A stretch of 64,000 bases of DNA, taken from assembly GCF_006345805.1 (NCBI RefSeq), contig NC_043012.1, positions 44,516,001-44,580,000 on the forward strand, written 5' to 3'. A program made the position numbers and the translations under genes. The DNA comes from Octopus sinensis. Its lineage: Eukaryota. Below the pieces are notes generated by a model that saw nothing but the letters and a program-made list of their open reading frames with translations, was not told where the DNA came from and did not search any database. Positions within the stretch are counted from its first letter, which is position 1; each line of letters begins with the position of its first letter. Shown in pieces: positions 34,002 to 55,498 of this stretch.

Positions 34002-34364
34002 TATATATATATATATATATATATATCTATATATATATAAAACTGGTATGAGTTAGCTCCCTTGTTACCCTAAGTTAGAGTTACCTTCCCTTCATTTACA
34101 CTGCCAGTGACTAAAACACACTATTGAATAAAACCAATTTAATACACACGTGCGAAAAATGTGCTTAGTCAAACTCGGAACACCACACCAAAATAATATT
34201 CACCCTGCTCTCATTGCCCAATGAAACCTCTCCCCAGCGAAATCACCAGCTCAAGAACAAAATTTAATGTAAGACTTACTAACTTTGCCTCTATTACCAT
34301 CACATATGTATCAATTATTTTCACATCCTAACTGATGTATCAATCTATTTTACACAAATAAAAT

Positions 34365-34409
34365 CTGAAGAAATTTATTAAAACTAATAGATCAAAACGA
34401 TCGTAAATG
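34365..34409 (+). ncRNA. Degenerate hammerhead relic
   Basis: CTGAAGA AATTTATTA AAAC TAATAGATC AAA ACGATCGT A. Stem II and the palindromic stem III remain; G12A, and stem I is poor. Confidence 0.4.
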
Positions 34410-34663
34410 CTACCTTTATCATTGCTTGCTTCCTTCTTTGTTATCTAATTAAATTAAATGTATACCAGCAAAAACGACGAGTCTCCCCTTGTTATTACAT
34501 CCATTTTCTTCTCGTATATAACCTAAACTATGGTCTACCAACCGAACCACCTGCTAGTGTACAACTTTACAAAAGACTGTACCTACCCAGGTAATAACCA
34601 GGAGCGACTTTGGATTTAATTATCCCTTAGAGGTATTAAACTCCTCTAACTGATACCTACACA

Positions 34664-34698
<35 letters not shown>

Positions 34699-34703
34699 TA
34701 AAT

Positions 34704-35228
34704 AGGATAAAGTCATTATTTAATGATTTATAAGTGGCCAGCATACTAAAATACCATAATGGTTAATTAATATTAAAATAACAATAAGGGCATTGAATAA
34801 TTACAATGCCAATCTGTTAGAAGTAGACCCCAAATGGTCTAGGAACCACTTAGATTATTACTCCATTACCACAAGACTGTAAGCAAGGAAAACAGACAGC
34901 GAGGATTTATAAAATAATTTGGATAGTACCGTATCTATAGATTTTGCGGTTTGAGTAATTAAAAATTTTTTCCGCTCATCAGTAGCACAGACCAAATGTA
35001 AATAAATGAGAAATACATATACATACCACATAAGCACAAGTATTATATGTGCATTTTGCATGTATTCATGAATTTAAAATCCAAGCATCTAGTTCAACCA
35101 GAATAGTTCTGCAGTAAATATGTTATAGGAGTGAACTGATATATATTTTTATACATAATTAGGATAAAGTCATTATTTAATGATTTATTAGTGGCCAGCA
35201 TAGTAAAATACCATAATGGTATTGTAAT

Positions 35229-35230
<2 letters not shown>
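34704..35230 (-). mobile_element. Terminally redundant non-coding element (period about 457 bp) carrying a degenerate hammerhead
   Basis: About 60-bp direct repeat aggataaagtcattatt...ataccataatggt at 34704 and 35161; flanked by (TA)n. Confidence 0.65.
34926..34988 (-). ncRNA. Degenerate type-I hammerhead (G12A)
   Basis: Minus strand reads GTGCTA CTGATGA GCGG...CCGC AAA ATCTATAGAT A CGGTAC; GAA has become AAA. Confidence 0.65.
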
Positions 35231-35270
<40 letters not shown>

Positions 35271-35326
35271 GTTATATTTCGGGATGGTCACTTTTTTGGG
35301 GGCCAAATAAACACACACATGCATTA

Positions 35327-37279
35327 TCATATATACTTGAGTAATAATCAATCTTATGTAAAAGTCAACCCCCCTATTTTTGGCCAAAAATTTTGGAATT
35401 TTCCATAGATTCCATATAAAAGTTGACCCTAGTATTTCATGAACAACAGGACAACATTTGTGGGTCAAGGTACCGTATTATCTTGTTATAACACTGTTAC
35501 AAAATTGTGTGGCTACCTTGCTGTAGCCTGCTCTATAGGTGGAATGCTTGGTGCTTATAGTAAAACACTCTTTAATAGTGAGCACTACACATCTAAAATG
35601 TATGCACAGGTTATGCTGGAACCCTGCATACATCTGCAAGTACAATAAACACATGTAACACATACTCGTTGTTTACATGGTGAGAAACATGTTTCACAGA
35701 CAGCACTATTGGCGAACACTGGCAAATGCCACTGTCTGAATTCATACTTTGGTAAGCCTAAAAACATTCAATTACCATAAAAACCCATGTAATTTATGCA
35801 TTTTTTCCGCAAATGTAAAGATAAACTATAGGGGTTGCACAAATTACATGAGTAGATCATTTCCAGAATTTGTTTTGAAATTTTTTTGGTTGGAAAATGA
35901 CATACAAAACGTAAACATTCATACCAGAAGTTGACTTATTTAATATCAGAATAAGTTTTTACAGAAAAAATAATGGCTTAAATAGCAATAATGAAGTTGA
36001 CTTTTATTTATGCTGGACGGTATAATGCTTACTTTTTTCTGTATAAATTTACTAAAACCACAAAATGGTTAACTACTTTTTGAAGTCTGGTGTTCATACC
36101 GGTAAACACGGTCCAGGTCATATTTTACATTGCTTGGAGTTTCTACCTATCACAATGGAGCACCACCGACATGTGTAGTGTTATGGATATTCCTGACTTA
36201 AAAAAATGTAATGATATGGATAATCTTGATTGTATGTTTTTATTTTTGTCTGTTTATTCCTAGGCACAGTTTTAAGTTTGTTGTACTGTTTACTCCAATT
36301 TCAAACATCGGCTTCATTAACACTGAAATGACTTTCAGCAGTTCTACTGCCACATTCAATTGCATATTCAACATATTTAATTTCTCCTTCACAGTAAACA
36401 GTTCATAAGTTCTGCCCATACTGACAATAATAGTAATGACAAATTAAATTTGCTTGACATTTTATAAATGTGAAAGGGATTAAAATTTCGATACTCCGTA
36501 TCAAAGGTTCCAACAAGAATAGGCAGAAAAGAATTCTGTTTACATAATCAGCTTGATCAGTCACCTTCCTCTGTTGGTTGAGTAAAGTGTCATCCAAGCT
36601 GCTGTTTATTGGTAATTATACTTAATTTGCAACACCTGCTTCTTATCAATAGCTTTTCCTGTGATCGTGGTTTGAGAAAACATACAGTAGTATGCTAAAG
36701 ATCAGACATAATCTCTTGTGGGCAAGAAATGTAAAATAAAGTTTATTATAAACAACACAAACACTTTGTAATTTAATAGCTTTCAATGTGATACCCGTTT
36801 AAGCAGAAATTATTTTTATTTCATGAAAATTTAATAAAATCTAATCAGAAGTAAGTGAAATTATGCTAAATACAACTAAATTGAAAGCTTTTTTCCCCTG
36901 ACTATATCAGCAATTCTGAAAACTTTTAGGTGTGAATCTTGCATAAGTAGAAGCTTTTCCTGAAAATCACCTGCGTAAATTACACAGGTGCACAAATTAC
37001 ATGGGTTTTTACAGTAATCACTAGATCAATGGTTTCCATGCAACCTTTATATTTTACTAGGACGTGTTTTGTTGCATAGAACTGGTAATATTACTGTAAT
37101 TCATTGTGATTTTGTTTTTATTCGCTTAGAGACGAGTTGGGCTTCTGCCACTGATACGGTACTTCGGATTCTAGCTTGAATTTCAGCCCCTCAAAAGTAG
37201 TATCCATTTATAGTCAACCCCATAAATTTGACATTAAAAAATGGTCTAAAAAATTCGACTTTTACATGAGTATATATGG
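35327..37279. mobile_element. Nested pogo-like DNA transposon relics; inner element about 35775-37014 carries a Brinker-type HTH remnant
   Basis: Outer termini catatatacttgagt and gagtatatatgg; inner ccataaaaacccatgtaatt and aattacatgggtttttacag. Minus-strand relic YVEYAIECGSRTAESHFSVNEADV.NWSKQ at about 36260-36400. Confidence 0.6.
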
Positions 37280-37461
37280 TATAAATTCTTCACTTCAGTT
37301 TTATTATTGTTCTTATTTTAGTGTCCTTTGTTTGAAATCTGTTGTCACAAAGATTTGAAATGAAGAATGAATATATAGTGTGTGTTTATTTGACAGAAAA
37401 ACAATATCTGTTTCAATACATAATTTCTCATCAGGAATCTTTCAAAACAAATACATAAACG

Positions 37462-37502
<41 letters not shown>

Positions 37503-37508
37503 CACAAA

Positions 37509-53758: not shown

Positions 53759-53791
53759 TCTATATATATATATATATGATATATATATATG

Positions 53792-53836
<45 letters not shown>

Positions 53837-53879
53837 GTGTATATATATATATAATATATATATATATATGTATATATAT

Positions 53880-53947
<68 letters not shown>
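53497..53947. repeat. (TA)n microsatellite; further tracts at 54228-54354 and 55450-55612
   Basis: Directly visible. Confidence 0.95.
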
Positions 53948-54010
53948 TGATAAAACGGTAAGATAACAAAAGAAAGAAGAGACCTCAATATTATGTAAAT
54001 AGAGGAAATT

Positions 54011-54230
54011 TATCTATACAATATATTACATTACTCGTAGTCAAGATAAAACTCTGAGTTTCAGATGCCGAAGTGGAAATCCACAACACCATCTCTTCGG
54101 TTATCTGGCTATTTGAAAACGTTTTCAAATAGCCAGATAACCGAAGAGATGGTGTTGTGGATTCCACTTCGGCATCTGAAACTCAGAGTTTTATCTTGAC
54201 TACCGAGTAATGTAACATATTGTATAGATA
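54011..54230. repeat. Near-perfect 220-bp spacer-less palindrome with a hammerhead-like motif on each arm
   Basis: Centre at aaaac|gtttt (54120/54121). The plus arm 54135-54196 reads AGATAA CCGAAGA GATG...CATC T GAA ACTCAGAGT T TTATCT. Confidence 0.8.
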
Positions 54231-54238
54231 TATATATA

Positions 54239-54329
<91 letters not shown>

Positions 54330-54663
54330 TATATTATATATATATATAATATATGATTAATTAATAAGGGTGAGAGAATTAGATACTAATTTAATAGTAT
54401 ATCTATTCAACACCAAGTGGCCCAGTGCTCCGAGAAACCTGGATTATTATAATATTTTGTAATATATTATAATATTTTATACAAAAATAAATATAAGAGA
54501 GTGGTCACTATATGGCTCACTCTAGCACTAGTTAATCCAAAAGGTTTCAACCACAAAAATACATGTTTCCCATGAAAGTCAGTACGATTGTTAGCTCACA
54601 CGAACAGGGCAAATAAAAAATAACAAAAATACAGGTGTGATTGAGTGGATTTCATCCAGATAG

Positions 54664-54745
54664 TTTTGGCTGAGGAGCTACAAGTGGATTTTTTTGTAAG
54701 TAAAATTACATTTAATTCATTAATAGCGAAACAATTGTCCCAAAA
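54664..54745 (+). ncRNA. Type-I hammerhead ribozyme, copy 1 of a tandem pair
   Basis: Stem I TTTTGG/CCAAAA; core CTGAGGA; stem II GCTA...TAGC; GAA; palindromic stem III ACAATTGT; GTC cleavage (cut after 54739). Confidence 0.85.
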
Positions 54746-55199
54746 TAATCTGTATTTTTGTTATTTTTTATTTGCCCTGTTCGTGTGAGCTAACAATCGT
54801 TCTGACTTTCATGGGAAACATGTATATTTGTGGTTGAAACCTTTTGGATTAACTAGTGCTAGAGTGAGCCATATAGTGACCACTCTCTTATATTTATTTT
54901 TGTATAAAATATTATAATATATTACAAAATATTATAATAATCCAGGTTTCTCAGAGCACTGGGCCACTTGGTGTTGAATAGATATACTATTAAATTAGTA
55001 TCTAATTCTCTCACCCTTATTAATTAATTATAATTATGCTACATTTATTTCTAAATGTAGTATTTGTTTCCGTGAAAGTTTGGCGCGCTGTTAGTAGGGG
55101 CATTTGAATTATAACGTCGGATGTAATCAATTGAACCACACGTGTATTTATCGTTATGGTAAAATCTGGCGTGTGATTGAGTGGATTTCATCCAGATAG

Positions 55200-55281
55200 T
55201 TTTGGCTGAGGAGCTACAAGTTGGGTTTTTTGTAAGTAAAATTACATTTAATTCATTAATAGCGAAACAATTGTCCCAAAA
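55200..55281 (+). ncRNA. Type-I hammerhead ribozyme, copy 2, 536 nt downstream of copy 1
   Basis: Same stems and core as 54664-54745; cut after 55275. Confidence 0.85.
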
Positions 55282-55498
55282 TAATCTGTATTTTTGTTAT
55301 TTTTTATTTGCCCTGTTCGTGTGAGCTAACAATCGTACTGACTTTCATGGGAAACATGTATTTTTGTGGTTGAAACCTTTTGGATTAACTAGTGCTAGAG
55401 TGAGCCATATAGTGACCACTCTCTTATATTTATTATTATTATTATTATTTATATATATATATGTATATATATATATATTATATATGTATATATATATA

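Follow-up and report, generated by a model that had tools for sequence, protein, structure and literature searches.

The 64,000-nucleotide (nt) stretch of Octopus sinensis DNA analysed here (assembly GCF_006345805.1, contig NC_043012.1, positions 44,516,001 to 44,580,000, forward strand; hereafter the window) contains several inserts with hammerhead ribozymes that end in (TA)n repeats. Three of these inserts, termed A, B and C, consist of tandem units that carry a hammerhead but no coding frame; they belong to a known class, the non-long-terminal-repeat (non-LTR) retrozymes. Their 3' regions share a predicted multi-helix RNA domain associated with two fixed end sites, and insertions with an inverted arm predominantly combine one long and one short end. 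A, B and C probably reach (TA)n through a borrowed Penelope-type reverse transcriptase (RT)/endonuclease that reads this domain and copies one RNA from both target ends, starting at the short site on one end and at the long site on the other. Two further inserts, D and E, which a preceding sequence-only reading of the window had counted as members of the same family, derive from the 3' ends of autonomous Penelope-like elements; the shared domain is absent from both.

Hammerhead-bearing tandem units

Every insert was used as a query against the 2.72-Gb genome, and the units were then rebuilt. The first look returned 1142 candidates for B, 266 for C, 2263 for A and 609 for D, numbers that are lower bounds and not copy numbers. 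The consensus units have periods of 525 nt (A), 536 nt (B) and 473 nt (C), with 536 nt for B and 457 nt for C in the window copies. Families of the same build, including G (538 nt), H (476 nt), J (484 nt), arrays of ~546 and ~556 nt and several subfamilies, are present in flanks and in random DNA. A type I hammerhead is found in every unit, in six families (A, B, C, G, H, J) the sequence past the long end returns to the following hammerhead, and family B forms head-to-tail arrays of at least ten units. No RT or endonuclease frame was found in the units, and, apart from one locus described below, no other coding frame continuous with a unit was read among 150 family loci. LTRs, primer-binding sites and polypurine tracts were not seen by eye in the units, no search for tRNA primers having been made. 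The five consensus units that were compared are collinear, with alignment z-scores of 16.8 (A-G), 17.6 (B-G) and 11.8 (C-H), although only 1.0-1.9 for B-H and G-H. The inserts had been described as unrelated-looking; they are homologues, and the proposed family of 460-540-nt units is real for A, B and C as part of a group of 470-560 nt, without D and E.

The hammerheads of A and B are minimal type I ribozymes with a palindromic helix III, and the window cores of C and D carry AAAA instead of the GAAA of the family consensus. The distance from the cleavage site to the long end is 251 nt in A, 278 in B, 228 in C and 253 in D. The spacing of 230-280 nt noticed earlier is therefore valid for these four, and the 3' ends and hammerheads that had been quoted were located in the sequence. 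As a general property of hammerheads the spacing does not hold: 52 random stretches of 10 kb (520 kb in all) contain 10 hammerheads in nine insertions, against none in shuffles, and only three of the 10 (two insertions) were assigned to the A/B/C group by the author's reading. Other details of the earlier description had to be revised as well. E has no hammerhead, the AATTATG said to follow the end is missing after the long end in the A, G and H consensus sequences, and the segment at 54959-55021, taken as the 3' end of B, is internal to the plus-strand arm, whose end is a second site at 55437, the long end being located on the inverted arm at about 54352.

A predicted long-range helical domain

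When single units are folded, the region of the GCCACT motif pairs with strands located 70-130 nt upstream. The motif, proposed earlier as a primary-sequence signal, is the 3' side of two predicted long-range helices, P1 and P2, more than a sequence signal, and it changes together with its partner. The helix P2 is well supported. It is recovered unaided by RNAalifold on a sequence-only alignment of 14 subfamily copies, in which 90.2% of 112 cells are paired, compared to 17-41% when the strands are slid, and double changes occur in five of its eight pairs, a level seen in just 3/500 shuffles. With the sequences anchored on the motif, all eight pairs form in 13 of the 14 representatives, and the pairing probability reaches at least 0.8 in 11 of them. 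Between A and B, P2 differs at four consecutive pairs, all of which are doubly changed. A covariance model was built from the 14 copies and applied to the window, the fetched loci and random DNA, to which the census is limited; among six held-out matches, P2 is formed at a probability of at least 0.8 in four, one of them largely different in sequence. As judged by RNAalifold and the shuffles, P2 covaries over the 14 subfamilies. Support for P1, whose 3' strand is GCCAC, is moderate: its probability is 0.65-0.98 in eight of the 14 representatives, and both of its strands change together in family M. Since MAFFT misregisters P1 by one column (and P2 of B by three), P1 was left uncounted on the alignment.

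In the 520 kb of random DNA, the model matches six insertions at E < 1e-5 and one weaker array, which suggests, as a rough extrapolation, tens of thousands of copies of the group in the genome. One random stretch (L177:38-3510) holds seven units of ~556 nt in which the P2 pairing is retained with a largely different sequence. A long family B array of over ten units (G000:C22:27624461-27631764) contains an inversion.

Two end sites in a (TA)n target

Where the sequence-only reading had assumed one 3' end per unit, each family has two end sites, a long one after the terminal hairpin and a short one inside the P2 loop, separated by 90 nt in A, 129 in B, 83 in C, 105 in G and 99 in J. As judged from sequences and folds, both sites consist of a hairpin base, CU and an AU-rich stretch. 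The copies leave the unit mostly 13-14 nt past the CU in A, 10-13 nt in B and 11-14 nt in G, with more scatter in C and a confounding TA stretch of its own in J; these distances are upper limits because TA matches extend them. The junctions of A, B and C are fixed and not the product of random truncation, as had been proposed. A strict (TA)4 is present within 45 nt of the ends in 34/41 A, 28/31 B, 28/37 C and 32/35 G cases against a background of 5.8% (31-nt window), which bears out the enrichment of (TA)n at insertion sites expected earlier. A looser test for dinucleotide repeats at the junctions was dropped for its background of 43%, and the 'other' ends of J in the first end mapping were artefacts of its TA-rich consensus, the tract being masked afterwards. 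Autonomous elements of this genome likewise have two ends, 143 nt apart in D, ~65 nt in a lineage with a 717-amino-acid (aa) frame and ~35 nt, the classical tail, in a 775-aa lineage.

These data bear on the reading, which appears improbable, that the fold acts in RNA stability, circularisation or the control of the hammerhead, and that nothing but AU-rich stretches annealing to nicked (TA)n sets the ends. Both sites are AU-rich, the predicted folds of whole units are more stable than those of shuffles (z = -5.0 to -8.2), autonomous elements devoid of the domain also end at C-rich/AT-rich borders, and some J arms stop near the internal TA tract, all of which count in favour of this reading. 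Against it, in A, B and G the distance between hairpin base and end is nearly constant (10-14 nt) at both sites, copies seldom end at other AT-rich stretches, and one long plus one short end does not follow from annealing by itself.

Mostly one long and one short end per inverted insertion

For an unbiased sample of family A, the query was placed upstream of both end sites. Among 29 distinct insertions, seven have a single arm ending at the long site, eight a single arm ending at the short site, 12 combine long and short ends and two a long end with another position, so that an inverted arm is present in 14/29. Neither long+long nor short+short insertions were observed, an outcome with a probability of 0.5^12 = 2e-4 under free arm choice. 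In the other sets, long+short insertions make up 13/14 of the inverted cases in A, 7/10 in B, 10/12 in C, 6/9 in G and 11/15 in J, where the long end formed part of the query for the first A set, C, G and J but not for B; three B loci truncated at the edge of the locus were left out. With the A sets merged, all families together give 51 long+short calls versus three long+long and no short+short calls, and, as L046 and L047 represent one duplicated insertion, 50 long+short cases are distinct. Two of the long+long calls did not hold: L300 is a long+short insertion with a spurious 30-nt piece, and L218 is a junction of two subfamilies.

In each of the five families compared, the two arms of an insertion are closer to each other than arms taken from different insertions, with divergences within and between insertions of 0.007/0.022 (B), 0.033/0.046 (A), 0.048/0.087 (G), 0.055/0.083 (J) and 0.114/0.137 (C); several short arm overlaps show no such effect. 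In the non-nested insertion L079, the arms differ at 2/316 positions, and the minimum distance to other copies is 4.2%.

It is unlikely that these structures arise by fold-back copying, in which a cDNA primed at the long site would snap back, be copied to the short site and join the other target end (compare the self-priming proposal in PMC3846280). Such a process yields both arms from one molecule together with the long+short rule, and it agrees with the near-zero junction gaps and with the nesting of the short arm in the long arm in 7/12 unbiased A insertions and most cases of the long-end-biased sets. It does not account for the non-nested arms found in 5/12 unbiased A, 2/6 B, 2/6 G and 4/10 J insertions, where nesting is violated by up to ~400 nt. 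Moreover, 8/15 single-arm A copies end at the short site, which argues that this site primes on its own.

Relation to autonomous Penelope-like elements

Five of nine printed D copies continue upstream into a GIY-YIG endonuclease frame, as identified by its motif and tblastn; Pfam gave no match on the D endonuclease fragment, and the clade is presumably Neptune. The sequence at the 'GCGACT' position of D-type ends varies freely among nine sequences, these ends fold differently, and the covariance model, which matches A, B and C in the window, gives no match for D or E. The region singled out earlier as a conserved RT-recognition or priming signal is likely to be that signal in A, B and C, with D and E outside.

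Besides older D-type elements, the genome contains two young autonomous lineages, one with a 717-aa open frame and one with a 775-777-aa RT/endonuclease frame. In the latter (L381-L388), an upstream coding stretch apparently precedes the frame, and the tail has the classical length of 35 nt. A homologue search with the 717-aa frame returned 835 relatives, with a single name ('hypothetical protein') among the best 120. The comparison with 3' ends of autonomous elements that had been envisaged covered four element sets, with protein matches taken from the best 150 listed, and gave no model match among the lineages sampled. Mobilisation by Penelope-like elements therefore rests on the insertion signature.

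One G copy (L121:1230-1320) abuts the 3' untranslated region/endonuclease frame of an older autonomous element with no TA run between them and at neither end site. This fusion, a single case, is possibly a template switch, and as such would hint at which enzyme mobilises the units. L121 is not taken as an autonomous element with the domain, since its relatives have a different end. The same junction could be cited for the very unlikely reading that A, B and C are truncated ends of yet-unfound autonomous Penelope-like elements, which is how D behaves. Against it stand the return to the next hammerhead past the long end in six families, the long B arrays, the lack of any other continuous frame in the 150 family loci and the position of the L121 junction itself.

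Proposed mechanism and known systems

In the favoured scheme of a borrowed enzyme priming twice on one RNA, transcription would be followed by self-cleavage into monomers, circles or multimers, and the enzyme would bind P1/P2 and the two hairpins. The endonuclease would cut both strands of (TA)n, and the two ends would prime at separate sites of one RNA, each ~10-14 nt 3' of a hairpin base, presumably aided by a few bases matching (TA)n. Both minus-strand cDNAs would then be copied toward the hammerhead and joined at their 3' ends head to head, giving the inverted form, and a single arm would result if one cDNA wins. Copying of a circular or multimeric template across the hammerhead junction could produce terminal redundancy and arrays. 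A bolder extension, for now rather doubtful, likens the domain to telomerase RNA in acting as a template scaffold: a covarying junction would present two start sites, bounded by hairpins, to the two halves of a dimeric Penelope enzyme, and both target ends would prime on the same RNA. If so, the tail and inverted arm seen across Penelope-like elements would record a double priming that is obligatory and tied to fixed sites, and the domain would be a portable cargo signal.

Several observations count against the scheme, in addition to the long-end queries mentioned above. The shuffle test of P2 ignores relatedness, and most of the double changes are probably single events; P1 is weak or absent (<= 0.05) in 6/14 representatives, namely A, A2, H, H2, J2 and J3. 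An autonomous element with the domain was not found, the model giving no match in the 717-aa, 775-aa, D-type and other older end regions. Of the long+long calls, L036 appears to be real, and in 11 inverted insertions (one listed twice) an end falls at neither site, three such cases in family J lying beside the internal TA-rich tract that was masked in the analysis. Non-nesting could stem from later deletions at the palindrome centre, arm similarity could stem from gene conversion or one source locus, and some single-arm copies may hide arms shorter than 28 nt. Finally, the purified Penelope-type protein Poseidon displays no start-site difference between strands in vitro, according to the account in PMC11167929.

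That protein, from the green anole, is described as starting internally at two RNA sites, near a stem-loop downstream of the hammerhead, and extending both DNA strands (PMC11167929), which resembles and supports the scheme proposed here, and a dimer is predicted for Poseidon in the same account. Its template is described as not homologous to the cut DNA (PMC11167929), whereas both sites of the octopus units are AU-rich and paired across the insertion in genomic copies. Animal non-LTR retrozymes are portrayed as non-coding tandem units with a type I hammerhead, strongly self-paired RNA and proposed mobilisation by Penelope-like elements (PMC7229834; bioRxiv 10.64898/2026.07.22.740005); their typical units measure 150-450 nt, compared to 470-560 nt and a minimal hammerhead of the Penelope-like type here. 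End sites, target preference, inverted insertions and a cross-family domain are not described in the parts of these two sources that were covered, and PMC6962438, in the passages covered, only counts hammerheads in one squid. For Penelope-like elements themselves, a pLTR (pseudo-LTR), an inverted 5'-truncated arm, a tail often at one end only and a (TA)n bias (PMC8557442, PMC3846280) as well as a minimal hammerhead with palindromic helix III (PMC4209133) are on record. The retrozyme units share with them the minimal hammerhead, inverted arm, optional extension and (TA)n preference. Unlike these elements, the units are non-coding, their tail of 83-129 nt (versus 30-40 nt) is itself a structured domain, and the one-end rule is counted here.

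A further precedent is the twin priming of L1, in which two target ends primed on one RNA give rise to an inversion, with a variable second site and arms that do not overlap; in the retrozyme units, unlike L1, both sites are fixed and the arms overlap. The retrozyme class, the one-end tail, inverted arms, the (TA)n bias, minimal hammerheads and two in vitro start sites are already known. The literature searched, which did not extend to subscription journals and supplements, yielded no covarying domain common to retrozyme families and no counted long+short rule with non-nested arms.

These results bear on how Penelope-like elements recognise their RNA and why they leave tails and inverted arms, and the return of retrozymes to genomes has so far been argued mainly from co-occurrence and phylogeny. 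Here, covariation among at least ten divergent parasite families reveals what seems to be conserved, the counted pairing of one long with one short end limits the possible mechanisms, and the in vitro assay that already exists gains precise mutations and a readout from the domain.

Features of the window and minor observations

Table 1. Hammerhead-type inserts and related features of the window
Feature	Position	Strand	Remarks
A unit, 5'-truncated single arm ending at long site	43328..43690	+	consensus period 525 nt
A minimal type I hammerhead	43363..43431	+	core start 43369; cleavage after 43425
A predicted P2 (43550-43557 with 43632-43639) around short end site	43550..43639	+	one mismatch in window copy
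A long end: terminal hairpin P3, CU, AU-rich stretch, joined to (TA)n	43646..43690	+	
B insertion, inverted arm ending at long site	54346..54634	-	locus L001
B direct arm, 1.5 units of 536 nt, ending at short site	54635..55437	+	hammerheads 54670, 55206
B predicted P1 (54830-54835 with 54962-54967) and P2 (54853-54860 with 54955-54962)	54830..54968	+	pair probabilities 0.89, 0.89
C unit with 55-nt terminal redundancy, ending at long site	34697..35230	-	period 457 (consensus 473); hammerhead core 34982
D, 5'-truncated 3' end (pLTR region) of autonomous GIY-YIG Penelope-like element	34040..34662	+	hammerhead 34365; no P1/P2 domain
E, short end piece of D-related element	41126..41292	-	75% identical to D; no hammerhead
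Further family of A/B/C group, probable short-end arm	43135..43240	-	P1 and P2 5' strands, hairpin and CU; read from sequence; absent from the sequence-only reading

A scan of the window with Rfam lists no hammerhead family, its matches being microRNA models on simple repeats or palindromes, and the output of a gapless repeat search is dominated by microsatellites. For family B, 27-30 of 30 bins are covered by contigs of four runs guessed to be RNA, which is no evidence either way.

Several neighbouring features resemble the hammerhead inserts. At 53950-54218, a palindromic mini-insertion of the end of the 717-aa Penelope-like lineage carries a CCGAAGA hammerhead variant; its left arm is long and its right arm short, and it accounts for the Rfam mir-9 match there. 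At 38797-38925 (+), a decayed hammerhead precedes, by ~110 nt, a small hairpin with an end of the form CCCTTA/(TA)n, which represents another family with shorter spacing. A probable further hammerhead-type element is located at 44082-44420 (+), and 43293-43330 (-) is a short inverted match to its 5' part, ~750 nt upstream. The position of A and a TA array between this element and its inverted match suggests a nested insertion.

The region at 37480-38790, between TA repeats, is presumably a decayed Tc1/mariner-like transposase, judged by its motifs. Long inverted-repeat elements at 52305-53015, 56289-57093 and 57096-57456, similar to miniature inverted-repeat transposable elements, are unrelated to the hammerhead units.

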